A DNA stretch of 64,000 nucleotides from Escherichia coli (GTDB taxonomy: Bacteria; Pseudomonadota; Gammaproteobacteria; Enterobacterales; Enterobacteriaceae): NCBI RefSeq assembly GCF_003018235.1, contig NZ_CP027437.1; one strand, 5' to 3'. Under the pieces are notes generated by a model. The model worked only from the letters and a program-made list of their open reading frames with translations. It was not told the origin of the DNA and searched no databases. Position 1 is the stretch's first letter. Every line of letters starts with the position of its first letter. This document shows, one piece after another, positions 1 through 14,496 of this stretch. The translations under genes and the position numbers were made by a program.

Positions 1-158
1 ATTTGTTCTACAATACCATATGACGCCCGATATTACGCCATACATAGAATATGACTACCTTGACCGTCAGGGTGTTTACAACGGCAGAGATAATTTATCG
101 GAAAACAGTTATCGCATTGGTGTGTCATTTAAACTGTAGTAGACAGGAGACAGTCACA

Positions 159-1265
159 ATGAATAAAACAATAACGGCGCTTGCTATCATAATGGCTTCA
201 TTTGCCGCAAACGCGTCTGTATTACCGGAAACTCCTGTGCCATTTAAAAGTGGTACCGGAGCAATTGATAACGACACTGTCTACATTGGTTTAGGTAGCG
301 CAGGTACAGCATGGTACAAGCTGGATACACAGGCCAAAGATAAAAAATGGACAGCGTTAGCTGCATTCCCTGGTGGGCCGAGAGATCAAGCAACCTCTGC
401 ATTTATTGATGGTAATCTGTATGTGTTTGGCGGCATTGGCAAAAACAGCGAGGGCTTGACTCAGGTATTTAATGACGTACACAAATACAACCCCAAAACC
501 AATAGCTGGGTTAAATTGATGTCGCACGCGCCGATGGGCATGGCGGGCCATGTGACTTTTGTACACAACGGCAAGGCTTATGTTACTGGCGGTGTTAACC
601 AGAATATCTTCAATGGCTATTTTGAAGATCTCAACGAGGCTGGAAAAGATTCAACCGCTATAGATAAAATCAACGCCCACTATTTTGACAAAAAAGCAGA
701 AGATTATTTCTTCAATAAGTTTCTGTTGTCTTTTGATCCCTCAACACAGCAATGGAGTTACGCTGGCGAATCTCCCTGGTACGGAACGGCTGGTGCGGCG
801 GTTGTGAATAAAGGTGATAAAACCTGGCTTATTAATGGCGAAGCCAAACCAGGATTGCGAACGGATGCCGTATTTGAACTTGATTTCACCGGTAATAATT
901 TAAAATGGAATAAGCTTGCTCCCGTCTCATCACCAGATGGCGTCGCTGGCGGTTTTGCAGGCATGAGCAATGACTCACTGATATTTGCCGGAGGGGCCGG
1001 ATTCAAAGGGTCACGGGAAAATTACCAAAACGGTAAGAACTATGCGCATGAAGGCCTGAAAAAATCATATAGCACTGATATTCATCTTTGGCATAACGGG
1101 AAATGGGATAAATCTGGTGAATTATCGCAAGGTCGGGCCTACGGAGTATCATTGCCCTGGAATAATAGTTTATTAATTATTGGCGGTGAAACTGCAGGCG
1201 GCAAAGCGGTGACGGATTCAGTTTTAATTTCTGTGAAGGATAATAAAGTCACAGTACAAAACTAA
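159..1265 (+). CDS. nanM: N-acetylneuraminate epimerase (Kelch-repeat, YjhT/NanM)
   Basis: ORF translation from MNKTITALAIIMASFAANA (signal peptide) matches NanM along its length; SD aggaga about 9 nt upstream of ATG at 159; the ORF-track start at 51 is an upstream extension. Confidence 0.9.
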   Translation: MNKTITALAIIMASFAANASVLPETPVPFKSGTGAIDNDTVYIGLGSAGTAWYKLDTQAKDKKWTALAAFPGGPRDQATSAFIDGNLYVFGGIGKNSEGLTQVFNDVHKYNPKTNSWVKLMSHAPMGMAGHVTFVHNGKAYVTGGVNQNIFNGYFEDLNEAGKDSTAIDKINAHYFDKKAEDYFFNKFLLSFDPSTQQWSYAGESPWYGTAGAAVVNKGDKTWLINGEAKPGLRTDAVFELDFTGNNLKWNKLAPVSSPDGVAGGFAGMSNDSLIFAGGAGFKGSRENYQNGKNYAHEGLKKSYSTDIHLWHNGKWDKSGELSQGRAYGVSLPWNNSLLIIGGETAGGKAVTDSVLISVKDNKVTVQN

Positions 1266-1329
1266 CGCTTCAGGGTCCCAGTAAAGGGGCCCTGCTATCA
1301 ATTTGTCATTTGTATTACGCGAAAATTAT

Positions 1330-2310
1330 ATGAACGCAATAATATCGCCCGATTATTACTATGTTCTTACCGTTGCTGGTCAGTCTAATGCCATGGCGTA
1401 TGGCGAAGGACTGCCATTACCGGACAGGGAAGATGCGCCTCATCCCAGAATTAAACAATTAGCGAGATTTGCGCATACGCATCCCGGAGGCCCGTCATGT
1501 CACTTTAACGACATTATTCCACTGACTCACTGCCCACACGATGTTCAGGATATGCAGGGTTATCACCATCCTCTGGCAACGAATCATCAAACACAGTACG
1601 GCACCGTTGGCCAGGCACTGCATATTGCACGGAAATTACTGCCCTTTATTCCTGATAACGCAGGGGTTCTCATCGTTCCGTGTTGCCGTGGCGGATCGGC
1701 TTTTACCGCGGGCAGCGAAGGGAAATATTCAGAACGGCACGGAGCCAGCCATGATGCTTGTCGTTGGGGAACGGATACTCCGCTATACCAGGATTTAGTC
1801 AGCAGAACGCGAGCCGCACTGGCAAAAAATCCGCAGAACAAATTCCTCGGCGTATGCTGGATGCAAGGCGAATTTGACTTAATGACCAGTGACTACGCGT
1901 CACACCCTCAACACTTTAATCATATGGTTGAAGCCTTTCGTAGGGAGCTAAAACAATACCATTCTCAGCTTAATAATATTACTGACGCACCGTGGTTTTG
2001 CGGCGATACCACCTGGTACTGGAAAGAAAATTTCCCTCATGCGTATGAAGCTATTTATGGCAATTATCAAAATAATGTTTTAGCCAATATTATTTTCGTC
2101 GACTTCCAGCAACAAGGTGCAAGAGGACTGACGAACGCGCCTGATGAAGATCCAGACGATTTAAGCACGGGATATTACGGTTCAGCGTACCGGTCACCGG
2201 AGAACTGGACGACGGCACTGCGAAGCAGTCATTTCAGCGCGGCAGCCCGTCGGGGGATTATTTCTGACAGGTTTGTAGAAGCAATTTTGCAGTTTTGGCG
2301 CGAAAGGTGA
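1330..2310 (+). CDS. nanS: 9-O-acetyl-N-acetylneuraminate esterase
   Basis: Translation from MNAIISPDYYYVLTVAGQSNA matches NanS (YjhS); follows nanM in the same orientation as in the nanCMS operon. Confidence 0.88.
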   Translation: MNAIISPDYYYVLTVAGQSNAMAYGEGLPLPDREDAPHPRIKQLARFAHTHPGGPSCHFNDIIPLTHCPHDVQDMQGYHHPLATNHQTQYGTVGQALHIARKLLPFIPDNAGVLIVPCCRGGSAFTAGSEGKYSERHGASHDACRWGTDTPLYQDLVSRTRAALAKNPQNKFLGVCWMQGEFDLMTSDYASHPQHFNHMVEAFRRELKQYHSQLNNITDAPWFCGDTTWYWKENFPHAYEAIYGNYQNNVLANIIFVDFQQQGARGLTNAPDEDPDDLSTGYYGSAYRSPENWTTALRSSHFSAAARRGIISDRFVEAILQFWRER

Positions 2311-2317
2311 GCGTTCA

Positions 2318-2518
2318 TTAATTTGATTTATTTGCATCCATTAGCGCTTTTAACTGCTCCGGCGTAAACGGTGGTTTGCGTCGGTGCAACATCGCATGGC
2401 AATTAGGGCACACAGGAAGCAAATCATTAACTGGATCCAGCTGGTAATCCTCTTTAATGGCTGAAAGCGGCACCAGGTGATGCACATTAAGCAATTTCAG
2501 AACCGCATGCTCATACAT
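2318..2518 (-). pseudogene. Short HNH-endonuclease-like ORF (66 aa), probably a truncated remnant
   Basis: Translation carries HH..P....N....CPNCH..H spacing typical of HNH nuclease cores but is far shorter than standalone HNH enzymes. Confidence 0.35.
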
Positions 2519-2577
2519 ATTTCCCCCTAAGTTTGCTCACTGCCTTTAATTTATGTCACAGGCAATGTAATTCACCT

Positions 2578-2649
2578 GAAGCTCATCTTGAATCTGTCCT
2601 TCTACTTAGTCATTACCCTACTGGCACAACCGACCTCAAGATGAGCTTC
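2578..2649. repeat. 14-bp perfect inverted repeat (gaagctcatcttga / tcaagatgagcttc) with 44-bp spacer
   Basis: Read directly from sequence, arms at 2578-2591 and 2636-2649; lies just 3-prime of the minus-strand gene ending at 2656. Confidence 0.6.
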
Positions 2650-2655
2650 TTACTT

Positions 2656-3264
2656 TTAACGATGTATCAGAACAATCTTGCGCCGGGAGAATAGCGTTTC
2701 CGCAGACAGCTGGAATTTATATTCCGCGGCCTTCAGCTTTCGCGATTTAAGCATTTTCATCGTGATACCCCTTATTTTCCCTGACTCAACCTGTCTCTTG
2801 ATTTCGCCGGTGCTCAGCATGAGCTGCTTTTGCAAAATCGACAGCAGGCTGACCTGAAACGAACGGGAAATCCTGACGCTAACCTTGACCCATTTGCCGG
2901 GAGAAAGGCTGGCTAACCACTGCTCCTGAATGCGAAAATCAGGCCGACCCGATAGCTCTGCGTTGTTCCGCTTCAGCATCGCGATATCACAGGAAAAATG
3001 TTGAACCGTGGCTGCATCGTTGCTCATCAGCCGGTTATGAAGTTCGCGGTCAATTTTGCTGACGTGCAGGCGCGAAAATAGGGAGATATTCCAGGTGTAA
3101 TCACAGTGTGTGCATTTATAGATACTCCACACGTCCAGCACCTTCTTTTGCGAATTAATCCGAAATGCACCTGATGGCGTGAAGTCCCGTTTAATGTTGC
3201 ATGAAGGGCATCGCTTCGCAATGCGCTGATACCCCACGGGCGTGACGGTCCATGTAACTTTCAT
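2656..3264 (-). CDS. Hypothetical protein with N-terminal CxxC...CxxC zinc ribbon and basic C-terminal region (202 aa)
   Basis: Long ORF with two CxxC pairs (CPSC, CTHC) and a K/R-rich C-terminus; no confident family assignment. Confidence 0.5.
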   Translation of the reverse strand: MKVTWTVTPVGYQRIAKRCPSCNIKRDFTPSGAFRINSQKKVLDVWSIYKCTHCDYTWNISLFSRLHVSKIDRELHNRLMSNDAATVQHFSCDIAMLKRNNAELSGRPDFRIQEQWLASLSPGKWVKVSVRISRSFQVSLLSILQKQLMLSTGEIKRQVESGKIRGITMKMLKSRKLKAAEYKFQLSAETLFSRRKIVLIHR

Positions 3265-3559
3265 AACCTACCTTTTTTAACCCATACAAAACCGGATCCG
3301 TACTGAACGGACCATGGATGTTTATGTATGAAAAATATTTAAGAGATATTTTTCAGAGGGTTAAAAAAAGATTTCCAACTATGCAATCCTGTCGGTGAGC
3401 AAAGAGATATAGCGAGACTATCAAAACGGCAATTATTGGGTATATGAGTTCAATCAATATTCATGATGGTTATGGCTTGTTCTATTGATCTGACACATTA
3501 AACACGGCGCATTAATTTTGTATGTTTTATGAACAACCCAACAACAAAAGGAGCGCGAT

Positions 3560-3811
3560 ATGACACAGCACGAACGGTTTTGTCAGGCCTGCGGAATGCC
3601 GATGTCCGCACCTGATGCGCAGGGGAGTAGCGATAAATACTGTGCATACTGCAGCGATAGCAACGGCAATCTTAAACCCTGGGAAGAGGCGGTATCAGGC
3701 TTGGCCAGCTTCCTTGATTCCTGGCAAAAAGTCGGTCCAGAAGAAGCACAGAAGCGTGCAAAACGTTATCTGACGGCAATGCCTGCCTGGGCTCATAAAG
3801 CGGACGAGTGA
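3560..3811 (+). CDS. Small zinc-ribbon domain protein (83 aa)
   Basis: CQAC...CAYC motif; strong SD aaaggag 8 nt upstream of ATG. Confidence 0.5.
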   Translation: MTQHERFCQACGMPMSAPDAQGSSDKYCAYCSDSNGNLKPWEEAVSGLASFLDSWQKVGPEEAQKRAKRYLTAMPAWAHKADE

Positions 3812-3875
3812 ATAACAAAGTCAGGGTGATTTAGGCAGTCTATCTTCACTCCGCTGATTCCATTAAGGAGAGCCG

Positions 3876-4268
3876 ATGTTTTCTCACATTATGCTTGGAA
3901 CCAACAACCTGCCACGCGCCATTGCATTCTACGATCCGTTGATGGATATGCTGGGGTATCCCCGCGGCGGCAGGAAGAGGAGATCGCATGGTGGGGCGTT
4001 TTCAACGGTAATAACACTACGGCACTGGGTATCAGTAGGCCATTTGATAAACAGGTTGCCACGACCCGAAATGGAGTGATGGTCGCCCTGATTGCGCGTT
4101 CTGCCGAACACATCCAGCAAGTTTCATGTGCTAGCTTTAAATCACGGTGGCACTGACGAGGGAGCACCTGGCCAGCGTCCGCATTACGGCGAAGGGTTCT
4201 ACAGCGCTTACGTCAGAGACACCGATGGCAACAAGCTGGCTTACGTTTATTACACCGCACAATCCTGA
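3876..4268 (+). pseudogene. VOC/glyoxalase-family gene disrupted by frameshifts
   Basis: N-terminus MFSHIMLGTNNLPRAIAFYDPLMDMLGY in frame 1 (SD aaggaga upstream); the rest of a VOC-like protein (ALGISRPFDKQVATTRNGVMVAL... and GGTDEGAPGQRPHYGEGFYSAYVRDTDGNKLAYVYY) continues in the other two frames, implying at least two frameshifts. Confidence 0.5.
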
Positions 4269-4512
4269 GAACGATAAAGCGGGGGCCTCAGCGCCCCCAC
4301 CTGAAACTAAACCGATCCCGCAGATGTCAATGAGCGTTGAACGAGTTGATAAATGCCGAGATGTCTGACTGTTTTTACGCCAGAACTCCATGGTGTGACA
4401 ACCATACACATACTCCCTTCTTGACACCTTTAAACCATTTAACCGCATGCCTCTGTCTGCCCTGCAGGGACGGCTGATGCCTGTGTGTTGTCTGGCGGTA
4501 AGGAACAATACT

Positions 4513-4674
4513 ATGTACGCAAAATCCTTTATCGCTCTCGACGGGAATGGTCGTCTGACCGGTGCCCGTACTGCGCAGACCGCCCCTTACGATCGTTATA
4601 CCTGCCACCTCTGCGGTAGCGTGCTGCAATACCATCCTGAATACATCACCGAACGCCCGTGCTTTGAACAGTAA
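4513..4674 (+). CDS. Small hypothetical ORF (53 aa, MYAKSFIALDGNGRL...)
   Basis: ATG preceded by aagga-like SD; contains CHLCGS motif; function unknown, could be a remnant. Confidence 0.25.
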   Translation: MYAKSFIALDGNGRLTGARTAQTAPYDRYTCHLCGSVLQYHPEYITERPCFEQ

Positions 4675-5266
4675 CCAACACACTGACAGAGGGCGGCGAA
4701 AATGCTTTATGCAAATCTTGATGCAAAGGCAGCCAGACGAATTCGTAAGTTACGCTTTTACGTGGCAGATACTCAAAGCAGACTGGCATTGTAGCGACGA
4801 TTGCCACGGTGAACGCTATTGTATGGCATGTAGTACCTGAGACTTCAGCCGCCCAGTAGATATAGCATCATGAAAAAACTGAAATGCTTTCTTGCCAACA
4901 ACTCACTGAGCTAGTATGCCTCCACCGATGTAACAATTAGAGCAAGCGTCAAAGTGCGAAACTGCCCTCACGTAGCTGCAAGTTAACACCAGGAAATCCT
5001 GGTTCAAACACGACCAGCTCTATGTTAGCGGCAAGCAATCGTTGAACTAAACGCATATGCAGCCGGAGATGAAAGTTAGGAAAAAAGCAGAGGCTGATAA
5101 GAATTATGCACGTTGAGCTGGGATCGTAATACCCCACTTAAAATGTACAAGGGGAGTAGTCTAATGATGTTAAATACGAACCTTCAGTATTGTTCATTCA
5201 CCAATTTTCCCATATTCTCTCATCATTAATATTCTCTGCCGAATTTTATAGGGCTAACTCGCTGAA

Positions 5267-5470
5267 ATGAATGACAAAGCTTTAACCTTGAAAGATGTGG
5301 TGGCTTACTTAAAGTTGGCAGAAAAAACAGCGTATAGGTTGACTAGCGAAGGCAAATTGCCGGGATTTAAGGTTGAAGGCTCATGACGCTTCAAACGAGA
5401 GGATTTAGATATGTGGATTGAAGGTCAGAAGACTCAAAGCTACCCGAGTATCACAAAATCCAATCGTGGT
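5267..5470 (+). pseudogene. Excisionase/AlpA-like HTH DNA-binding protein interrupted by in-frame TGA
   Basis: Translation MNDKALTLKDVVAYLKLAEKTAYRLTSEGKLPGFKVEGS*RFKREDLDMWIEGQ; the stop at 5384-5386 sits where this family has the conserved Trp of the GSWRF motif. Confidence 0.5.
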
Positions 5471-5666
5471 TGATCAAGTGGATAAACATGAAAAGTCGGT
5501 AGCCCTCAAAGGCCACTTGCCACATGCAGTGAAGCAAGCCGTTGTGCAAGCTCTACTGAAAGAAGGTGATATCGCCCGAACGTTGCTCAAGGATCCACAA
5601 GTTATGGCAAGTTATGTTGAGCTGATTTTCGACATGATGAAGCAGAATAAAAATATGAATATCTAA
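5418..5666 (+). CDS. Small hypothetical ORF immediately upstream of the ATPase gene (non-ATG start in ORF track)
   Basis: ORF-track call only; start is TTG/GTG with no convincing SD; overlaps the 3-prime end of the HTH pseudogene. Confidence 0.2.
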   Translation: MKVRRLKATRVSQNPIVVDQVDKHEKSVALKGHLPHAVKQAVVQALLKEGDIARTLLKDPQVMASYVELIFDMMKQNKNMNI

Positions 5667-5708
5667 AAGATTTTGGGCTATCTATTACGTTTTAAAATGA
5701 GATAAATA

Positions 5709-8246
5709 ATGATAAATGACCATGAAGAACTAGAACTTGCTAAAGCTCAGGCAAAAGAAATATGGAAGATCCTTGATTATGTTCGAGGAGCATCACCTAT
5801 ATCTAATTATCGCTCATTAGCGTATTCAATCTTCTTCGTACGCTATCTTCAATCCAATACAGGTCAGCATTTTGAGGCAGAAAGGTTCGACTCTTTTAAT
5901 GTCATCGCCCAGTATTCCTACGATCTTGTAAACTATGCCGTTCAACTTGGATTGATTCATAGCGACGTATCTAAATTCTTAATTTATTATTTAGAAAACA
6001 CACTCCGTTCATTTGTCAATATTGATGAGTCTTTTGTTCGTTATGCAATTAGAGATGGTCTACTCAATAAAACCCCTGCAATAGCGTCGCTTTCTTTATC
6101 AGAACTGGATTTACTTTTTGCCGAGAATGAAGGTAAGTCAGGAGGTGAGTTTTATACCCCTAGAGACGTCAACTTATTGGTTAAAATATTAGGATTGAGT
6201 TATCAACCAAAGTCAATATGTGACCCATTTGCAGGTGCTGGAAACACAGCATTTCCTTTTGCCAATACTGGTATTGAAAAAGTTAGGATTGATACTCAAG
6301 AAATTAATAGAGATGCTTACTTTAAACTAGTAATAAGTAGAGTCATCAGGAAAATAGAAGGTCGAGACTATTTCGGCGATTCCCTATCACAACCATTATA
6401 TCAAGAAAATAAATATGATCTGATAGTTTCTTTCCCACCTTTTGGCATGAAAATTCCTAAAGCCACTCGAAATAATATTTACTATAAAACAAGTAATAAG
6501 TGGCTGGATATTACTGAAATCTTGCCAGAAAGTAGAAGTGATTGGTTTATAACATTATCAATGCTTCCAGCCCTTTCTGAGGGGGGTAAGATACTAGTAG
6601 GTATGTCACTTGGGGCTTTGACAAGAGCAGGCTCTGAGGCAAAGGTTCGTGAGTATTTAGTCTCTCGCGGAATTATCGAACAAGTAATTCTTTTACCTAA
6701 AAATATTTATTACTCTACGGCTATCTCAACTGTACTTCTTGTCCTCAACTCAGGAACAAGTAACATAAATAACAGAAGTATTAAATTTGTAGATGCTTCA
6801 CTGTTTTACGAGCCTGCCCGTGGTCGAAACACCCTCACAACAAAAAATATAAATGAGATCGTAGAGGCTTGTCATAAAGATGGCCGATTTAGTATTAGTT
6901 CATCTCATACCCAAATAGCAAACAGAGACTTTAATTTAGATCCGTCTCTTTATGTACGTAAAGATCTCAAAATCAGTGAGGTTTCTTTAAAAAATTTTAG
7001 AGGATACTCTGACTTTAAAGTTTCGATACATCCTTCTTTAAATGTATTGGTTGGTGAGAACGGCGTCGGGAAAACTTCGATATTAGAAGCATTAGCATGT
7101 GGCCTTGGTCCTTTCCTTACTGCTATGCCTGATGCTAAAGGAAAACTGATAAAAAAATCAGATATCCATATAAGTTCAAAAGGAATCGCAAATTATGCTC
7201 GAATATCGATTGAAACAACATCAAGTTTAAGTTGGGATCTTGTGGCAAAGGGGGTTGATGTTTCCGAGCCCCCTAAGATAGGAACATCAGCATTAACTAG
7301 CTACGCTACTCATCTTGTAGATAGTCAGTCTGAATATCCACTCATTGCTTATTATGGGACTAACCGTGCTCTTACTTCTACCAGTTCTAAAGTTGCAATA
7401 AATCCATTCGAGAAAGAAAATCGTGGGGAAGGTTATGACTTTGCTTTAGATGCTAAAGTTAACTACGGCATCTTAAAGAACTGGTTTTCAAAAATAGAGG
7501 TTGATGAGCTTCGAAAACGTGATGAACTAAAAGACCATAAATTCATTCATCCGGCTAAGAGACTTGTTTCAGAGGCTGTTTACCAGATTGTTGATCGAGC
7601 TACATGCTTGGAGTTCGACAAAAATAGTAACGATGTTATGGTTCATTGGAAAAATGAGCAGGGAGAGTGCGTAAAGCTTACATTGGAACAACTAAGTGAA
7701 GGGTATAGAAATATGGTATCCCTGACCATTGACCTAGTGAGGCGTGCTTATTTACTTAATCCTACCAAACCGAAACCGCTAACAGTTAATGGGATCGTTT
7801 TAATTGATGAAATTGAACTTCACTTGCACCCTAGATGGCAGCAAAAGATTTTAAATGATCTTACTAAGCTGTTTAAGAATATTCAGTTTATTGTCACGAC
7901 ACATAGTCCTCAAGTCTTAACAACAATCAAAGCCGATTGTATCCGTATTGTTTCCGTCAATGCTAACGAAGCAAAATTAGTGACAGGAACTACTACTTAC
8001 GGTTCTGAAAGCTCAAGAATGTTGGAAGATGTTTTAGGTGGTAACAATCGCGCCCAACATCTTGATATTGTTAAAAAACTAAACCGTTATACAGAGTTAG
8101 TAGAGGCCGACAAATGGGATACCGATGAGGCATTAGAACTCAAAAAAGAGTTATATAAATGGGGTGGTCAGACAGAAGACGAGCTTCAAAAATTAGAAAC
8201 TGATATTCGAATTCGCGAGTTCGAGCGTGGCAATGAAAAAGATTAA
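5709..8246 (+). CDS. Fusion protein: N-terminal gamma-class N6-adenine methyltransferase-like domain plus C-terminal ABC-type ATPase (Septu PtuA-like)
   Basis: MTase-like motifs in order X-I-IV: EFYTPRDV (about aa 147), DPFAGAGN (about aa 172), SFPPFG (about aa 240). ATPase motifs: Walker A GENGVGKTS (about aa 449), Walker B VLIDEIELHLHP (about aa 695), TTHSP (about aa 730). AT-rich coding sequence. Confidence 0.75.
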   Translation: MINDHEELELAKAQAKEIWKILDYVRGASPISNYRSLAYSIFFVRYLQSNTGQHFEAERFDSFNVIAQYSYDLVNYAVQLGLIHSDVSKFLIYYLENTLRSFVNIDESFVRYAIRDGLLNKTPAIASLSLSELDLLFAENEGKSGGEFYTPRDVNLLVKILGLSYQPKSICDPFAGAGNTAFPFANTGIEKVRIDTQEINRDAYFKLVISRVIRKIEGRDYFGDSLSQPLYQENKYDLIVSFPPFGMKIPKATRNNIYYKTSNKWLDITEILPESRSDWFITLSMLPALSEGGKILVGMSLGALTRAGSEAKVREYLVSRGIIEQVILLPKNIYYSTAISTVLLVLNSGTSNINNRSIKFVDASLFYEPARGRNTLTTKNINEIVEACHKDGRFSISSSHTQIANRDFNLDPSLYVRKDLKISEVSLKNFRGYSDFKVSIHPSLNVLVGENGVGKTSILEALACGLGPFLTAMPDAKGKLIKKSDIHISSKGIANYARISIETTSSLSWDLVAKGVDVSEPPKIGTSALTSYATHLVDSQSEYPLIAYYGTNRALTSTSSKVAINPFEKENRGEGYDFALDAKVNYGILKNWFSKIEVDELRKRDELKDHKFIHPAKRLVSEAVYQIVDRATCLEFDKNSNDVMVHWKNEQGECVKLTLEQLSEGYRNMVSLTIDLVRRAYLLNPTKPKPLTVNGIVLIDEIELHLHPRWQQKILNDLTKLFKNIQFIVTTHSPQVLTTIKADCIRIVSVNANEAKLVTGTTTYGSESSRMLEDVLGGNNRAQHLDIVKKLNRYTELVEADKWDTDEALELKKELYKWGGQTEDELQKLETDIRIREFERGNEKD

Positions 8247-9021
8247 TAAGCTAGATGAGCCAAATCGGCTTGGTGTGTTCAAGGCTACTCATCCTAATGC
8301 TTTGTGGGAGAGGGATAAAAACTCAATTGAAGAGGCTTTCCGTTGTTGCATTGCCAGATATCAAGAAACTCTACAACAATTACGTACGGACCAAGGTAAT
8401 TTATGTGCATATTGTGAACAGGATTTAATGTCTGGAACTAATGGGGCATTAGATGACTGCCGTATTGAGCATTTTCATCCGAAATCTAAACGTGAACAGG
8501 GAGAACCTAATTGGGCTTTGGAATGGAGCAATTTGTTAGTTGTTTGCTGTGGCGGAAATCAAAGTAAAGTTGTTAATCCTGGGCAAAGATTTGATGCTGA
8601 TCCCAAAAATTACTCTTGCGATGTACCAAAGAGTGACAAAATTTTAGATACCATTATATTAAATCCACTTAATTTACCTGAATTAAATATCTGGAAGTTT
8701 CATCGTTCTTCGGGGCAAATTTCCGTAAATGAAGATTCCTGTTTAGAATTTGGTATAAGTGTTGAAATGGCACACCAAACAATTAAAGAATTGAATTTAA
8801 ATTCCCCTCGATTAATTAGATTTCGAAAGGCTATTCTAAATAATCTCAACATTTTAATAACAGAAAGGCTGAAGAAGGGACAAACGGTAGAGCAAGCTGT
8901 TAGATTTATTGCCATATCACTCTTTAGAAAAAATGGAGCAGGTGATTGGCCCTCTTTTTTTAGTGCAACACGATATTATTTAGGTCAGCAGGCTGAGCTT
9001 GTTTTAGCCCAACCTATTTAA
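8227..9021 (+). CDS. HNH nuclease (Septu PtuB-like)
   Basis: Motif CAYCEQD...DDCRIEHFHPKS...WSNLLVVCCGGN; start (GTG 8227 or ATG 8233) overlaps the stop of the upstream ATPase gene, indicating an operon. Confidence 0.7.
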   Translation: MAMKKINKLDEPNRLGVFKATHPNALWERDKNSIEEAFRCCIARYQETLQQLRTDQGNLCAYCEQDLMSGTNGALDDCRIEHFHPKSKREQGEPNWALEWSNLLVVCCGGNQSKVVNPGQRFDADPKNYSCDVPKSDKILDTIILNPLNLPELNIWKFHRSSGQISVNEDSCLEFGISVEMAHQTIKELNLNSPRLIRFRKAILNNLNILITERLKKGQTVEQAVRFIAISLFRKNGAGDWPSFFSATRYYLGQQAELVLAQPI

Positions 9022-9040
9022 CATACTTTCAACTAGTTAG

Positions 9041-9063
9041 AGAGGCTGCTTTTGGCAGCCTCT
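9041..9063. terminator. Hairpin between convergent operons (agaggctgcttttggcagcctct)
   Basis: Perfect stem agaggctgc/gcagcctct with T-rich loop, located between the stop at 9021 (+) and the stop at 9082 (-). Confidence 0.4.
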
Positions 9064-9081
9064 TGCAGAGTGCAGAATCGA

Positions 9082-10515
9082 CTACAGGGGCGATGCTAGC
9101 TCAGAGAACCAAGCGTGAACTGATCTGTAAAATGTGCTGATTGACCAAAACTCACTGCATGCAGCAACTAACAGAATGACCACTAAGAGGATCACTACAG
9201 TAGAAGTCATTCTTTCCACACGGCAGTATGATCCCATCGCATCTTTTACAGGTTGTCTAGCCAGTTCCTGATAATCCAGCTCATCCAGAAATCCGTATAA
9301 TTTAGTTCTCCAGGTGGTTCTAACTCTTTCAAGTAATGAAATTGTTTGCCTATTAATATAGACAGACATTCCATAGGAAATAACTATATAAACCGCGATA
9401 GCACAAAAAACCAAAGCGTAAATATTTTGCAAACCAACTGATTTTACTGCATCCAGACTGTAGCGAATAACCAAGACACTAATTACAAGAGCCATATCTT
9501 TCCATAAGGAAGAGGACAAATCTCGGGATTGCTGAATGATCTTTTGTGTATCTTCAGCCAGCGTTTTCCGCAAATCACCCAAGGATTTCATAGTATCTTT
9601 ACCACCAGTCCTGATATGGGCCTTATACATTAACCGTGCAGACTCCAAAGCTGATGAGAGTCGAAGCATCACTCCCTCACAAAAGTTCAGGTCTGAAGGC
9701 CACTCTCTAGCCAGCTCGCTGGACAAAAACGTATGTTTCAGCTCAGTTTCATTCCCCTCTAGAAAAATCCACTTTGCCGCTTCCTGGATAATATCAAAAG
9801 CAGGTAACGCTGCCGTCTCATCGCCGAATGCTATTTTTCTGGGAGGCTTTCCCGCAAGCCCCACCATCATTTCGTCAGCAAAAAAAAGTTCATTTGCAAA
9901 ACATTTCAGCAACTCTCGGCATCCTAGCAATTTCCATATCTTGATTGCTTCATCAGTCTTCTCACTACAAGTTTCAAGTATCCAAGGGGCAATGGCATCT
10001 GGAGGAAGAAAAGTTGTTGAATAACATTTGATGATACTTTTTGTTACTGAAGGCTTAGTGATAGCTGTTGCATCACCAGCACTCACCGGCTGTATCTCCT
10101 TCCATGGATGCACATACCAACTTATTGTCTGAAAGCCTTCAGTAATAAACAGCCCATAAATATGTTTGTACCGACAGAGTTTGCTATCTTGAAGTAAAAA
10201 AGTGCGCCATCCTTCTAAGGTAAAAAGCCTCAGTATCCCCGGAATTTCATTATAAGTGATGGTAATGTAGTGCTTCTGCCCTGGGACCCCCTCTCTCGGA
10301 TGAATAACATCTCTGCTCTCATCGATAAAAACGATCTTGAGATCTTCCGCATGTACATCCACTATTTCTCCCCATAAATCAAGGGATTCACTATCCATTG
10401 TGGCGGAAATAAAAAGCTTATGGATAGACACCTGCTGGTCCTCTGTGATCACAAGGTCAGATAAATGTCGTGAGTGGCATATAGCCTTACCGATTTTTTC
10501 CAATATCGATATCAT
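9082..10515 (-). CDS. Hypothetical protein with C-terminal transmembrane helices (477 aa)
   Basis: Long ORF; C-terminal hydrophobic segments (IYALVFCAIAVYIVISYGMSVYI and STVVILLVVILLVAACSEFWSI); 29-nt overlap with the upstream gene; no recognisable catalytic motif. Confidence 0.55.
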   Translation of the reverse strand: MISILEKIGKAICHSRHLSDLVITEDQQVSIHKLFISATMDSESLDLWGEIVDVHAEDLKIVFIDESRDVIHPREGVPGQKHYITITYNEIPGILRLFTLEGWRTFLLQDSKLCRYKHIYGLFITEGFQTISWYVHPWKEIQPVSAGDATAITKPSVTKSIIKCYSTTFLPPDAIAPWILETCSEKTDEAIKIWKLLGCRELLKCFANELFFADEMMVGLAGKPPRKIAFGDETAALPAFDIIQEAAKWIFLEGNETELKHTFLSSELAREWPSDLNFCEGVMLRLSSALESARLMYKAHIRTGGKDTMKSLGDLRKTLAEDTQKIIQQSRDLSSSLWKDMALVISVLVIRYSLDAVKSVGLQNIYALVFCAIAVYIVISYGMSVYINRQTISLLERVRTTWRTKLYGFLDELDYQELARQPVKDAMGSYCRVERMTSTVVILLVVILLVAACSEFWSISTFYRSVHAWFSELASPL

Positions 10516-11548
10516 CTGTTACCAATCCTGCAGTCACAATTACAATTCGTTTTCGCCCGTCTTCCATATTTTCTACTTCTGGTGCATTGTCTTCATCGTA
10601 GATAATGATTACATCTTCCAATGTTTCCAGTTTTCTCTTCCGGGGCTTCTGAATGTTATCGGGAATGATGCGGAAAGATTCACCTGAAATTCCTAAATCC
10701 TTTATTTTACGAAAAAAATACTTAACCAGAGGGTGTTCTTCCTCCAAAGGACCAAAAATCTGGGTCAACAATGGCAGTGCTTCATCAGTATTAAAATCCT
10801 GTTCGCCATGGCGTAAAGTTTCATAAATTTTGTTTACTCCGCTGCGCTTGATCTCTTCAGGTAGTAAGTTTCGATGCTTTTTATATACATCTTTTAATAC
10901 AGTAACTAGCTTATCGCTGAGCTGAGTTGGGTCATTGACGCGCTTAACCTGTAGAAATCGTTCAAAATAGACAGAGATGTTAGTACGTTTGCTGCGATCT
11001 CGTACGACAACTAATCCGCCCGGCAAATCTTCATTCAGCCGTACCAGTGCGATTTTCTGCATGGCTTCGGCTTTTTTAACGAAACTTTCGCGAAAGCGTT
11101 CGAGTTTAGGTACCTGAAACTCATCTCCTTCAACATCCAGCACATAACGGACTACATCTTCATTGTCATACTTAATCAACGCATACAGTTTCTCATCGTT
11201 GAGTGTATGAAGTTCAAAAAGGAAAAAAACGCCCATACTGGCATTCTTGGTATGGTGGTGAGACTGAAAATCGCTTGCCAATAAGGAGGATTGCTCAGTA
11301 AAGCAGCCGATATCGGTGTCTGCATGTTCCCTGATGATCCTCAGGATTCGCTCTGTATTTGACAACTCCTTAAAATGAAACATATTGCCACTAACTGCAG
11401 ATTTGATACGTTCCAGAAAGAAATCAACATGCTCCGGAGGGGAAATTTCGCTGAGTAAAACAGGGACTTCCAACTCACCGCCAACCACATGAAAAATCAT
11501 CCTTTTTATTGATAATGCATTGATTTCTTCATCCGTTAAAAAACTCAT
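10487..11548 (-). CDS. Hypothetical protein (353 aa), weak resemblance to NdpA/YejK-type nucleoid-associated proteins
   Basis: Long ORF first in a two-gene operon; size and scattered sequence patterns recall YejK, but this is an unverified impression. Confidence 0.5.
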   Translation of the reverse strand: MSFLTDEEINALSIKRMIFHVVGGELEVPVLLSEISPPEHVDFFLERIKSAVSGNMFHFKELSNTERILRIIREHADTDIGCFTEQSSLLASDFQSHHHTKNASMGVFFLFELHTLNDEKLYALIKYDNEDVVRYVLDVEGDEFQVPKLERFRESFVKKAEAMQKIALVRLNEDLPGGLVVVRDRSKRTNISVYFERFLQVKRVNDPTQLSDKLVTVLKDVYKKHRNLLPEEIKRSGVNKIYETLRHGEQDFNTDEALPLLTQIFGPLEEEHPLVKYFFRKIKDLGISGESFRIIPDNIQKPRKRKLETLEDVIIIYDEDNAPEVENMEDGRKRIVIVTAGLVTDDIDIGKNR

Positions 11549-11744
11549 TTTTATTTCTCAATATAGTGTTTATATTTACTACCGTGAGCCATCTTACCTA
11601 AGCGTAGAACGTGGCGGAAAACACGATAACATTATTGCATAGCTTACGGCGTAACTTATCCTCGCCCCAGACAGAATAAACGTCAAAATAAAATAATGAA
11701 AATATGATCGAGACAGCATTAGCTGCCCCGCTTTCTTAGACTTT

Positions 11745-12998
11745 TTACATTATTAGGGCAAAATCAAACGGACTCACCCCCTTCTCCCGATTCGCATCCA
11801 GATAATTTGCCCACCACTGCAGCATCAACCTACGCTCCCCAAGATGTTCCGCCTTATGGATGTATGCCGCCCGCACAGAGCTACGCTCCTGATGGCTCAT
11901 CTGCCGCTCCACTGCATTCCTCGACCACAATCCTGATTCAATAAGTGAACTACAGGCCATCGTCCTGAAACCATGCCCACAGACTTCCGTTTTGGTGTCA
12001 TAGCCCATAACTCGCAAAGCCTTGTTCACCGTATTCTCACTCATCGGCTTATGCGGATCGTGATCGCCCACAAAAATCAGCTCTCGATTTCCATTCATGC
12101 TTTTGATCTTTTCCAAAATAGCTAAGGCCTGCCGCGATAAGGGTACAAGATGGGGAGTTCGCATCTTCGAACCACGCTGAGAATGTTTAACACCGTCCAA
12201 CGGTTCACGCTCACCGGGGATCGTCCACATGGCCGTTTCAAAATCCACTTCTGACCAACGGGCAAAGCGCAGTTCGCTTGAACGGATGAAAACTAACAAA
12301 GTGAGTTCGACAGCCAGTCGAGTTAACGGCCTGCCGGAGTAATGATCAATGCGGTGAAGTAATTCAGGTATGCGGTTAAGCTCCAGAGCCGCACGATGCT
12401 GTCTTTTAGCAGTAGCAACCGCACCGGTAATCTCTTGCGCGGGGTTGTAGTCGATTAAGCCGCTCTGAACGGCAAAGCGCATAATCGCGGTAGTTCGCTG
12501 CTGTAAACGGGCGGCGACTTCAAGACGTCCGGATGACTCCACCGCTTTAATGGGTACAAGAAGATCCCGAGTCTTAAGCTCTGCAATGTTCCGCTTACCG
12601 ATAGCAGCAAAGAGATTATCTTCTAGGCTTTTCAATACACGAGCACTATGCGATGCAGACCACTTCTGATTACTGGCATGCCAGTCTCTGACGACCACTT
12701 CAAACGTTATCGCCTCTTGCTCCTGTTCTACCTTAACCGCTTTCTTGTTTTCACTGGGATCGACGCCGTTCGCTAAAAGCTTACGCGCTTCGTCTCGCCG
12801 CGATCGAGCATCAGCTAACGAAACTTCAGGATACTTCCCTAGCGCCAGCATCTTCTCTTTACCACCGAAACGATAACGAAGCCGCCAGTATTTGGAGCCG
12901 TTAGGGTGAACCAGCAAAACCATGCCTTCACCATCAGTAAGTTTATAGGCTTTTGCTTCAGGCTTTGCCGAACGAACCTTCACATCACTCAGAGCCAT
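11745..12998 (-). CDS. P4-type tyrosine integrase (IntB-like), apparently intact
   Basis: Translation MALSDVKVRSAKPEAKAYKLTDGEGMVLLVHPNGSKYWRLRYRFGGKEK... matches P4/CP4-like integrases and ends with a tyrosine-recombinase C-terminus; adjacent to tRNA-Leu 3-prime end. Confidence 0.85.
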   Translation of the reverse strand: MALSDVKVRSAKPEAKAYKLTDGEGMVLLVHPNGSKYWRLRYRFGGKEKMLALGKYPEVSLADARSRRDEARKLLANGVDPSENKKAVKVEQEQEAITFEVVVRDWHASNQKWSASHSARVLKSLEDNLFAAIGKRNIAELKTRDLLVPIKAVESSGRLEVAARLQQRTTAIMRFAVQSGLIDYNPAQEITGAVATAKRQHRAALELNRIPELLHRIDHYSGRPLTRLAVELTLLVFIRSSELRFARWSEVDFETAMWTIPGEREPLDGVKHSQRGSKMRTPHLVPLSRQALAILEKIKSMNGNRELIFVGDHDPHKPMSENTVNKALRVMGYDTKTEVCGHGFRTMACSSLIESGLWSRNAVERQMSHQERSSVRAAYIHKAEHLGERRLMLQWWANYLDANREKGVSPFDFALIM

Positions 12999-13196
12999 GA
13001 TGAATATCCTTTCAAGGGTTCTGTGTGGGTACAAACATTATCGAACCGGGATATACCCGCAGTTGTACCCGCATCAGTAAGTTGATGTAGATTGAATCAG
13101 GTTGACTTAGGTTGAGTGAAAAAGCGAGGAAAGCCTTGCGGATACTGGATTTCAGGCATAAAAAAAGACCTCAGTTGAGGTCTATTTACATACTTA

Positions 13197-13281
13197 TGGT
13201 GCCGAAGGCCGGACTCGAACCGGCACGTATTTCTACGGTTGATTTTGAATCAACTGCGTCTACCGATTTCGCCACTTCGGC
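13197..13281 (-). tRNA. leuX: tRNA-Leu (CAA)
   Basis: Reverse complement reads GCCGAAGTGGCGAAATCGGTAGACGCAGTTGATTCAAAATCAACCGTAGAAATACGTGCCGGTTCGAGTCCGGCCTTCGGCACCA, with cloverleaf features and a long variable arm. Confidence 0.9.
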
Positions 13282-13476
13282 ACTGAAGAGGTATGCGGAA
13301 AACGTTGTGGATTATACCTGTCGCACGCCACCATGCAAGCGCCAGCTTGCTCGCACCTCGCTAAGTGCTGAAATTTTCAGCATTGCATACAGTGATGTGT
13401 AACCTTTGTCACACTCCAGGCACCCCGCCCTGCCATGCTCTACACTTCCCAGACAACACCAGAGAAGGACCAAAAA

Positions 13477-14496
13477 ATGTCGATGATAAAAAGCTATGCT
13501 GCAAAAGAAGCGGGCGGCGAACTGGAAGTTTATGAGTACGATCCCGGTGAACTGAAGCCACAAGATGTTGAAGTGCAGGTGGATTACTGCGGGATCTGTC
13601 ATTCCGATCTGTCAATGATCGATAACGAATGGGGATTTTCACAATATCCACTGGTTGCCGGGCATGAGGTGATTGGTCGCGTAGTGGCGCTCGGGAGTGC
13701 CGCGCAGGATAAAGGTTTGCAGGTCGGTCAGCGTGTCGGGATTGGCTGGACGGCACGCAGCTGCGGGCATTGCGATGCCTGTATTAGCGGTAATCAGATC
13801 AACTGCGAGCAAGGTGCGGTGCCGACGATTATGAATCGCGGTGGCTTTGCCGAGAAGTTGCGTGCGGACTGGCAATGGGTGATTCCACTGCCAGAAAATA
13901 TCGACATTGAATCTGCCGGACCGCTGTTGTGCGGCGGTATCACGGTCTTTAAACCGCTGTTGATGCACCATATCACTGCCACCAGCCGCGTTGGGGTAAT
14001 TGGTATTGGCGGGCTGGGGCATATAGCTATAAAACTTCTGCACGCAATGGGATGCGAGGTGACAGCCTTTAGTTCTAATCCGGCGAAAGAGCAGGAAGTG
14101 CTGGCGATGGGTGCCGATAAAGTGGTGAATAGCCGCGATCCACAGGCACTGAAAGCACTGGCGGGGCAGTTTGATCTCATTATCAACACCGTCAACGTCA
14201 GCCTCGACTGGCAGCCTTATTTTGAGGCGCTGACGTATGGCGGTAATTTCCACACCGTCGGTGCGGTTCTCACGCCGTTGCCGGTTCCGGCCTTTACGCT
14301 GATTGCGGGCGATCGCAGTGTCTCTGGCTCTGCTACCGGCACGCCCTATGAGTTGCGTAAGCTGATGCGCTTTGCCGCCCGCAGCAAGGTTGCGCCGACC
14401 ACCGAACTGTTCCCGATGTCGAAAATTAACGACGCCATCCAGCATGTGCGCGACGGTAAGGCGTGTTACCGCGTGGTTCTGAAAGCCGACTTCTGA
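13477..14496 (+). CDS. ahr: NADPH-dependent aldehyde reductase (YjgB)
   Basis: Translation from [22 protein letters not shown]... with zinc-ADH motif GHEVIGRV. Confidence 0.9.

Follow-up and report, generated by a model that had tools for sequence, protein, structure and literature searches.

The subject of this report is a two-gene Septu cassette in a 64,000-nucleotide stretch of Escherichia coli DNA (contig NZ_CP027437.1), which we refer to as the window. The first gene of the cassette encodes a protein in which a module resembling HsdM of Type I restriction-modification (R-M) systems is fused to the Septu ATPase PtuA, and the second encodes the nuclease PtuB. The closest described systems include both Septu and Type I R-M systems. 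Type I Septu (E. coli PtuAB; structures 8EEA and 8EE4) consists of the same PtuA and PtuB pair, encoded by overlapping genes and with a matching fold. In the retron systems Eco7/Ec78 and Ec83, which are classed as Septu type II or type I-A retrons and provide the closest solved PtuA and PtuB relatives (9nnb, 9kjx and 9e8z), the PtuAB toxin is restrained by an added sensor module, an upstream-encoded reverse transcriptase (RT) with its multicopy single-stranded DNA (msDNA), and PADLOC defines type II Septu by the RT (PMC8565338). RT-msDNA is thus the sensor of retron-type Septu, while type I Septu has so far been without a defined one. The substrates reported for PtuAB are tRNA-Tyr, single-stranded DNA (ssDNA) and plasmids, which are nicked; standalone Septu PtuAB nicks DNA, the PtuAB of retron-Eco4 cuts ssDNA, and ATP is reported to inhibit the effector (PMC12640716).

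On the side of Type I R-M, the HsdM subunits of EcoR124I (7BST) and EcoKI (2AR0, 2Y7C) share with the fused module a helical domain, a gamma-class Rossmann domain, motifs X, I, II, III and VIII and the Pro-Pro-Phe of motif IV. In M.EcoKI, residues 1-153 of HsdM form an HsdM-HsdM bridge over DNA or Ocr, residues 154-469 form the catalytic domain and residues 470-529 contact the coiled coil of HsdS (PMC2647291). Three defence systems serve as precedents. PrrC is, likewise, an ABC-ATPase-controlled nuclease in a Type I R-M operon, and it is unleashed from EcoprrI by the T4 protein Stp (bioRxiv 10.1101/2023.04.06.535777). In Ronin (RonA, HsdM and HsdS), Type I methyltransferase parts serve as an anti-restriction sensor: HsdMS senses ArdA, Ocr and Aop1 and releases a toxin, which the authors term 'decoy immunity', and sensing is independent of methyltransferase activity, as judged with an F287G substitution in NPPF, so that catalysis is dispensable (Silas et al., bioRxiv 10.1101/2023.04.06.535777). 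PARIS, too, senses Ocr. A phage may also act on the cofactor S-adenosylmethionine (SAM), and the T3 SAMase is a counter-defence against R-M (PMC7877911).

The locus in the window differs from each of these. Compared with type I Septu it has an extra HsdM-like module of 418 residues on the N-terminus of PtuA, and the cassette is habitually found 3' of Type I R-M operons. Compared with the retron systems, the added module is a fused pseudo-methyltransferase; no RT open reading frame (ORF) is present between positions 3000 and 14000, and an Rfam scan of positions 1-14000 at gathering thresholds yields tRNA only. Compared with HsdM, the catalytic Asn is aligned with Phe, PtuA stands in place of the HsdS-contact region (about residues 470-529 in EcoKI) and no cognate HsdS or HsdR is encoded in the window. 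PrrC binds the R-M complex as a protein of its own, with a nuclease domain built in; here the link would be an HsdM paralogue covalently fused to the ATPase, and the HNH nuclease is a separate partner. Finally, Ronin retains a canonical, potentially active HsdM together with HsdS and a 61-amino-acid membrane toxin, whereas the HsdM-like part described here is naturally degenerate, is without HsdS and is fused to an ATPase-nuclease effector. No description of an HsdM-PtuA fusion or of its degenerate motif was found in the searchable literature. In our assessment there is good support for regarding the fused domain as an HsdM paralogue that is without catalytic activity yet maintained for a function, in the service of the PtuAB effector.

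The HsdM-like module and its motif IV

A first-pass annotation, made from the letters of the window alone, had drawn attention to a methyltransferase-like domain that reads FPPF in place of the catalytic NPPF or DPPY motif. When the domain was compared with four solved HsdM chains (7bst_D, 3lkd, 7vru_A and 7vru_B) by phmmer, 'YDLIVSFPPFG' was placed over '(F)D.IV(S/A/M)NPP(Y/F)', and in the family member P0067 the same alignment column reads 'LIVSNPPFG'. The four structure-derived alignments and the in-family NPPF set the register, and the observation stands: by alignment, Phe242 occupies the catalytic Asn position of motif IV. The motif extends 3 nucleotides beyond position 6440, where the annotated feature had ended. 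The annotation had allowed that its register might be wrong and that the preceding Ser might complete an S-x-PPF variant. This alternative falls, because EcoR124 HsdM reads 'IVSNPPY', with Ser directly before Asn, and Ser241 is therefore an ordinary flanking residue. It should be noted that the placement of F242 in the pocket rests on sequence alignment and not on the AlphaFold2 model described below. EcoR124 HsdM (7bst_D) is also the best sequence match of the domain in the PDB (E 6e-30), and motifs X, I, II and III align residue-for-residue with their HsdM counterparts. A second statement in the annotation, that the SAM-binding motif I (DPFAGAGN) is intact, is borne out both by its alignment to HsdM and by the invariance of D172-P-F-A-G176 in the family.

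To place the substitution in an evolutionary context we rely on a search of 5.8 billion proteins, which returned 68 clusters with the same fusion architecture at identities down to 42%. Their hosts are found in the Enterobacterales, Vibrionaceae, Shewanella, Pseudoalteromonas, Aeromonas, Plesiomonas and Undibacterium. Motif IV is covered in 66 clusters; its first residue is Phe in 59, Leu in 4 and Ile, Cys and Asn in 1 each, and its fourth residue is Phe in 62, Ile in 2 and Leu and Met in 1 each, the Undibacterium clade having lost the aromatic fourth residue as well (FPPI/FPPM). The hydrophobic change is thus family-wide, with the exception of one deep lineage. In a neighbour-joining tree of the PtuA domain, rooted on an HsdS-PtuA protein described below, the sole NPPF member, P0067, lies in a deep-branching clade together with CPPF, LPPF and FPPI/FPPM members, and the large crown clade is FPPF. 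The first codon of motif IV is AAT in P0067, TGC in P0068 and TTY elsewhere. This pattern of codons supports a reading of the tree that fits the loss of an ancestral NPPF and its replacement by hydrophobic residues only. The NPPF member itself (L003:1734-5020, a Logan SRR26673773 contig) is one of the few that are not preceded by hsdR; unrelated LprI and peptidase genes lie upstream. As a single case, this no more than hints that a version that looks active may serve away from R-M operons.

The residues expected to contact SAM show a different pattern. D172-P-F-A-G176, T196-Q-E198 and P151 of FYTP are invariant, most other motif residues are at least 90% conserved, and an aromatic residue is conserved at motif VIII (Y334/Y335 here). 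The ratio of nonsynonymous to synonymous substitution rates (dN/dS) in the methyltransferase domain is 0.086 between E. coli and Klebsiella and 0.130 between E. coli and Serratia; the equivalent values for the PtuA domain are 0.076 and 0.082. On average, pairs of sequences are 60% identical in the methyltransferase domain, 68% in PtuA and 48% in the N-terminal helical domain, which is the most divergent part of the protein. A decaying pseudogene domain is rejected by dN/dS values of 0.09-0.13. These values, which are similar to those of the ATPase, together with near-invariant SAM motifs, point to a maintained pseudo-enzyme and argue against a decaying relic. The suggestion of the annotation that the fold is kept for binding rather than for catalysis is in line with the conserved SAM motifs and the strong purifying selection.

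An exhaustive search of 1.84 billion representatives at 50% identity recovered only four full-length members of the family; the lowest of these scores 266 bits and the match that follows 128 bits. The 140 HsdM-like representatives that come next, which lie outside the family, have Asn as the first residue of motif IV in 114 cases, Asp in 6 and Ser in 2, leaving 18 others. A scan of metagenomes for the motif pattern gave 51 loci, of which 17 are family members; most of the rest encode an unrelated protein of ~400 amino acids with 'DLVATFPPFG' near its C-terminus and represent chance matches. The pattern D-L-x-x-S-F-P-P-F-G, with which a phage-borne origin was looked for, has no match in IMG/VR viral contigs. 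A scan of genome contigs with the family alignment and generic P-loop patterns gave only distant ATPases and HsdMs among the matches listed.

The architecture of the fusion protein is supported by several profiles. Pfam N6_Mtase (PF02384) matches residues 137-418 (E 7e-42), and from residue 421 onward the ABC/SMC-type ATPase families AAA_23, SMC_N, AAA_15 and AAA_21 match. The PADLOC PtuA model PDLC00278 aligns residues 420-843 with profile positions 1-435 of 436 (E 4.7e-106), and the product of the second gene matches PADLOC PtuB (E 1.9e-100) and TIGR02646 (score 83.6, cutoff 52.15). In NCBIfam the PtuA, hsdM, PtuB and TIGR02646 models all match. An AlphaFold2 model of the fusion protein (mean predicted local distance difference test 83, predicted template modelling score 0.78) retrieved with Foldseek the PtuA chains 9nnb, 9kjx, 8eea and 8ee4 (probability 1.00 for 8eea, 8ee4 and 9nnb) as well as HsdM 3lkd. 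The Walker A and B motifs, signature and H-loop of PtuA are intact and invariant across the family. In PtuB the catalytic His of 'EHF' (codon at about 8470) is kept, by alignment to the PtuB of retron Ec83; this is the His that is Ala in the Ec83 mutant structure 9o4a. With its catalytic motifs intact, the PtuAB effector looks functional. By its effector pair the locus is a Septu system, in which PtuA bears an N-terminal HsdM-like module. A retron-type Septu was considered and rejected; in addition to the absence of an RT and of a retron RNA, the retron-Ec78 equivalog cutoffs of NCBIfam are missed by both PtuA (329, below 500) and PtuB (127, below 150).

The same data define how much of HsdM is present. 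Residues 1-136 contain helices only in the AlphaFold2 model, residues 15-58 give a weak local phmmer match to residues 13-56 of EcoR124 HsdM, and the Foldseek alignment to 3lkd covers about 480 columns, the 3lkd chain having 468-472 residues. At the other end, the alignment with EcoR124 HsdM stops at residue 475-478 of its 520, PtuA profile position 1 falls at residue 420 of the fusion, and the model has no helix between residues 405 and 421. The helical and catalytic domains of HsdM are thus kept, and the C-terminal HsdS anchor is gone, with PtuA in its place. No target recognition domain (TRD) or HsdS is encoded in the cassette, as judged from its ORFs and from PADLOC. Compared with active HsdM, the domain has the gamma-class fold with the SAM-binding motif I and motifs X, II and III; it is without a polar first residue in motif IV, without the HsdS-binding C-terminus and without hsdS and hsdR in its operon. 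Since two defining features are missing, we do not regard it as a member of the active HsdM family.

Association with Type I restriction-modification operons

It was of interest to determine what surrounds the cassette in other genomes. An hsdR gene lies directly upstream on the same strand in 17 of the 22 contexts with usable upstream sequence, a count that includes related contigs and is not phylogenetically independent. In Klebsiella the order is hsdM-hsdS-hsdR followed by the cassette. The cassette also follows hsdR in Undibacterium, Pseudoalteromonas, Shewanella gelidii and Vibrio crassostreae, follows hsdR and a YgjP-like gene in Shewanella sp. KX20019, and follows hsdR in 10 metagenomic contigs; in one more contig an insertion sequence (IS) fragment lies between an hsdR remnant and the cassette. 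The five exceptions are the window, Serratia L023, L003 (the NPPF member), L043 (with an IS upstream) and L061. In four lineages the junction is so tight that one base (in TGATG or TAATG) belongs both to the stop codon of hsdR or ygjP, whichever lies upstream, and to the start codon of the fusion gene.

The association extends across unrelated restriction systems. A pairwise comparison of six upstream HsdR proteins separates them into four families, with only 21-28% identity between families. One HsdR type, whose representatives in Undibacterium, S. gelidii and V. crassostreae are 80-87% identical, is found with cassettes from two different clades. All HsdM proteins encoded alongside the cassette read NPPF or NPPY and share only 22-28% identity with the fused domain, which argues that the fused domain is not needed for modification. 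The same identity leads us to reject the idea that the domain is a recent duplicate of a neighbouring hsdM. As the cassette is usually appended to Type I R-M operons, the sensor role feeding the ATPase and nuclease, which had been suggested from the window alone, can be narrowed to a sensor or decoy tied to Type I restriction. In S. gelidii (L017:941-10001) and V. crassostreae (L024:995-10001) the operons are composite, with the order HTH_17, hsdM, a GmrSD_N protein, a second hsdM, hsdS and hsdR, and they contain two different canonical HsdM genes, one NPPF and one NPPY.

Related arrangements are found outside the family. In Photobacterium carnosum (L002:8001-10550; WMDK01000020.1) a protein of 849 amino acids consists of a complete HsdS, with two TRDs in residues 1-390, fused to PtuA. 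The gene order is hsdM-[hsdS::ptuA]-ptuB-hsdR, so that Septu is placed inside a Type I operon, as PrrC is in EcoprrI. A protein of 774 amino acids, P0090 (L025:752-3639; JGI Ga0256828_1004236), has an HsdM-like domain, in which motif IV reads IPPF, joined to an ABC ATPase of the HEC-01A type (PADLOC E 5e-118), and its gene is followed by an overlapping DUF4276 gene. It is a second architecture in which a predicted dead HsdM is fused to an ABC ATPase, with a different effector. The 18 nearest HsdM-like representatives that are without Asn, Asp or Ser at motif IV (about 13% of the 140) have Gln, Cys, Val, Thr, His, Ala, Ile or Phe there. The C-terminal region of P0147 (QPPW) is matched weakly by TIR-containing PADLOC models; P0109, P0201 and P0189 have a single TRD-like C-terminus; and the gene of P0171 (FPPFGMR) follows a half-size HsdS gene. 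Parts of Type I methyltransferases, in which motif IV is often degenerate, are thus found repeatedly as the N-terminal module of a defence effector.

A further protein was encountered in the contig L041 (JGI24023J19991_10008302). Its ORF of ~756 amino acids, which contains positions 3182-3210, encodes 'FDFIVSFPPFG' and a degenerate motif I, 'ILDPWTTKES', with no G-x-G. The C-terminal region is long and has an R-x5-H pattern, 'RNKWKGH', reminiscent of HEPN, with nothing significant in Pfam. This protein may be another dead methyltransferase-like module on a different effector.

Proposed function and its alternatives

Tentatively, and with a little less than even confidence, we propose that the cassette provides a backup layer for Type I restriction, in which the pseudo-HsdM acts as an anti-restriction decoy or as a reporter of SAM loss that gates PtuA and PtuB. 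The fused domain would no longer methylate but would still bind SAM, and it would serve as the input, or sensor, of PtuA-PtuB, the role played by RT-msDNA in retron-type Septu. The signal read would be phage attack on Type I restriction. One option is that the domain is an integrated HsdM decoy that captures DNA-mimic or peptide anti-restriction proteins of the Ocr, ArdA or Stp type; another is that it reports the loss of SAM caused by phage SAM-degrading enzymes. Capture or loss of the ligand would alter the nucleotide state or assembly of PtuA and thereby license PtuB, which would then cut host or phage nucleic acid as an abortive-infection backup. The orphan cassette of the window would act alone or with a Type I system encoded elsewhere. 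The backup-layer mechanism is favored by the linkage to R-M operons, by the precedents of PrrC, Ronin and PARIS and by the sister architecture in which HsdS is fused to PtuA.

A more specific form of this proposal is somewhat less likely. Two pseudo-HsdM modules, their C-termini held by a PtuA dimer, could mimic the M2S1 clamp, with PtuA in the place of HsdS; as an integrated decoy or cofactor sentinel, this assembly would switch on PtuB when an anti-restriction protein is captured or SAM is lost. If this were so, Septu would gain a defined trigger and a bacterial counterpart would exist to the 'integrated decoy' domains of plant nucleotide-binding leucine-rich repeat (NLR) receptors. The HEC-01A-type ATPase fusions and the possible TIR-like C-terminal region would then point to a wider class of dead-methyltransferase sensors.

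Several considerations weigh against the proposed mechanism. The loss of catalysis, the binding of SAM and the nature of the trigger are all inferred. A pure protein-binding decoy has no obvious need of every SAM-contact motif, and a pure SAM sensor has no obvious need of the Pro-Pro-Phe and the N-terminal domain. Between the fused domain and the HsdM that it would imitate, identity is only 22-28%. The linkage to R-M is frequent but not obligatory, the window, Serratia L023, L003, L043 and L061 having no adjacent R-M operon, and the 22 contexts counted above are not independent of one another, related contigs being among them. In addition, Type I R-M systems are common in defence islands, so that island architecture could explain part of the association; the tight, overlapping same-strand junctions argue against this explanation.

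The best surviving alternative, which we consider unlikely, gives the domain the part of a DNA reader or targeting module. It would dock on DNA and flip a base into a hydrophobic pocket (F242, F245 and Y334/Y335) with no modification, sensing phage DNA or its methylation state and positioning PtuB there, so that PtuAB would be a second nuclease arm and not an anti-restriction guard. This would account for the conserved Pro-Pro-Phe and motif VIII aromatics, and for the retention of the N-terminal domain, which in HsdM of M.EcoKI bridges over DNA. It would also agree with the nicking of DNA by standalone Septu and the cutting of ssDNA by retron-Eco4 PtuAB, and with the function, or at least the persistence, of the cassette in several genomes where no R-M operon adjoins it. 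However, HsdM without HsdS has no sequence-specific DNA binding, and no TRD or HsdS is fused to the domain or present in the cassette. The HsdS-binding tail is missing as well, and the frequent translational coupling to hsdR is left unexplained.

A structural scaffold is quite improbable. The domain would in that case only shape PtuA oligomers or keep PtuB autoinhibited, the trigger, for example a fall in ATP, acting on PtuA or PtuB. The reported inhibition of PtuAB by ATP in other Septu systems, the degenerate catalytic residues and an N-terminal domain that is the least conserved part of the protein are all compatible with such a role. It does not predict that D-P-F-A-G, T-Q-E, FYTP and G-D-S should be invariant down to about 42% identity, nor a dN/dS of about 0.1, nor the replacement of Asn by hydrophobic residues only, nor the linkage to R-M.

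It is highly improbable that the domain remains active as a methyltransferase, through an unusual motif IV or on another substrate, and protects host DNA or RNA from PtuB as in an R-M pair: all SAM-binding motifs are intact, RefSeq labels the protein 'N-6 DNA methylase' and one lineage (P0067) keeps NPPF, but the residue that contacts the amino group is Phe, Leu, Ile or Cys in 65 of 66 clusters, one clade has lost the aromatic fourth residue too (FPPI/FPPM), there is no specificity subunit or TRD, a canonical NPPF or NPPY HsdM is encoded upstream in most contexts, and substitution of this Asn or Asp in EcoKI, M.TaqI and other gamma-class enzymes abolishes or severely reduces methylation.

METTL14, which has EPPL for DPPW, is a known case of a class I methyltransferase fold that keeps its architecture without the usual residue at the start of motif IV and has a binding or scaffolding role. 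That protein is eukaryotic and RNA-directed, works together with an active partner as a heterodimer, reportedly does not bind SAM and has no link to immunity. Returning to the proposed sensor, the fusion gives Septu a recognizable input domain, for which the candidate ligands are SAM, DNA or a flipped base, and DNA-mimic anti-restriction proteins. The genomic association points to Type I restriction as the thing watched, and the question of sensing is directly testable. There is also a consequence for annotation. Under the RefSeq and UniRef labels 'N-6 DNA methylase' and 'site-specific DNA-methyltransferase' these fusion proteins would be counted as orphan methyltransferases in methylome and R-M surveys, and very probably they methylate nothing. 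As ~13% of the nearest HsdM-like representatives are without a polar residue at motif IV, with fusions to other defence effectors among them, the catalytically dead HsdM domain may be a sensor that is used repeatedly.

The cassette, its island and neighbouring genes

The features discussed are collected in Table 1. The cassette is rare in the species: of 5,426 complete E. coli genomes only 2 have it, with its genes annotated as 'N-6 DNA methylase' and 'retron system putative HNH endonuclease'; the RefSeq start of ptuB is 6 nucleotides downstream of the GTG start used here. The island that bears it adjoins a tyrosine integrase gene and tRNA-Leu(CAA). Positions 5441-9087 of the window are 95.5% identical in DNA sequence to positions 9733-13379 of Klebsiella pneumoniae L020, and homology ends abruptly on both sides. 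The sharp ends on both sides point to cassette exchange. A simple loss of hsdMSR from the window was considered and is rejected, the sequence upstream of position 5441 having no homology to the Klebsiella locus. No hsdS or hsdR adjoins the cassette in the window, which makes it an orphan here.

Table 1. Coordinates of the features discussed (positions in the window unless a locus is given)
Feature	Position	Strand	Description
Fusion gene	5709..8246	+	ORF, 845 amino acids; HsdM-like module and PtuA ABC-ATPase; RefSeq label 'N-6 DNA methylase'
N-terminal all-helical domain, residues 1-136	5709..6116	+	Counterpart of HsdM N-terminal domain
Rossmann-fold methyltransferase catalytic domain, residues 137-418	6117..6962	+	Ends where PtuA begins
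Motif X EFYTP	6147-6161	+	From translation
Motif I DPFAGAGN (SAM binding)	6222-6245	+	D172-P-F-A-G176 invariant in family
Motif II T196-Q197-E198	6294-6302	+	Acidic residue for SAM ribose in HsdM-type enzymes; invariant
Motif III GDSL	6375-6386	+	From translation
Motif IV F242-P-P-F245 in place of N-P-P-F/Y	6432-6443	+	Phe codon TTC
PtuA ABC-ATPase, residues 420-845	6966..8243	+	PADLOC, Pfam, Foldseek
Walker A GENGVGKT	7053-7076	+	PtuA
ABC signature LSEGYR	7692-7709	+	PtuA
Walker B VLIDEIE	7797-7817	+	PtuA
H-loop TTHSP	7896-7910	+	PtuA
ptuB	8227..9021	+	HNH nuclease, 264 amino acids from GTG start; overlaps 3' end of fusion gene
Mobile cassette	5441..9087	+	3.65 kb: small-ORF 3' remnant, pseudo-HsdM::PtuA gene, ptuB; sharp boundaries
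Truncated ORF remnant	5418..5666	+	Klebsiella counterpart is a 146-amino-acid ORF between hsdR and cassette
Tyrosine integrase	11745..13034	-	Island integration-site marker (context only)
tRNA-Leu(CAA)	13197..13281	-	Island integration-site marker (context only)
Locus among the nearest HsdM-like representatives without N/D/S at motif IV	L027:1320-3285		

The small-ORF remnant at the 5' end of the cassette is probably not a functional part. Other lineages have not kept it, and where hsdR overlaps the fusion gene it is missing. Promoters and terminators were sought in positions 5200-9300, and no signal rose above the shuffled background.

Between the Septu cassette and the integrase, two overlapping genes occupy positions 9082..11548 on the minus strand. 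One encodes a nucleoid-associated protein of 353 amino acids of the NA37/NdpA family (Pfam E 1.5e-12), and the other a protein of 477 amino acids whose C-terminus is hydrophobic and which matches nothing in Pfam, PADLOC or NCBIfam. Given their position in the island, they may be an uncharacterized defence or island-maintenance pair. Just 5' of the breakpoint at 5441, positions 5270-5445 contain a short AlpA/HTH_17-like ORF that ends prematurely in '...GFKVEGS*'; intact HTH_17 genes are found at the head of the Type I operons of relatives (L015, L017 and L024). Further upstream, the closest complete E. coli genome has the IS3-family element ISEc31 in place of positions 3958-4630 of the window.

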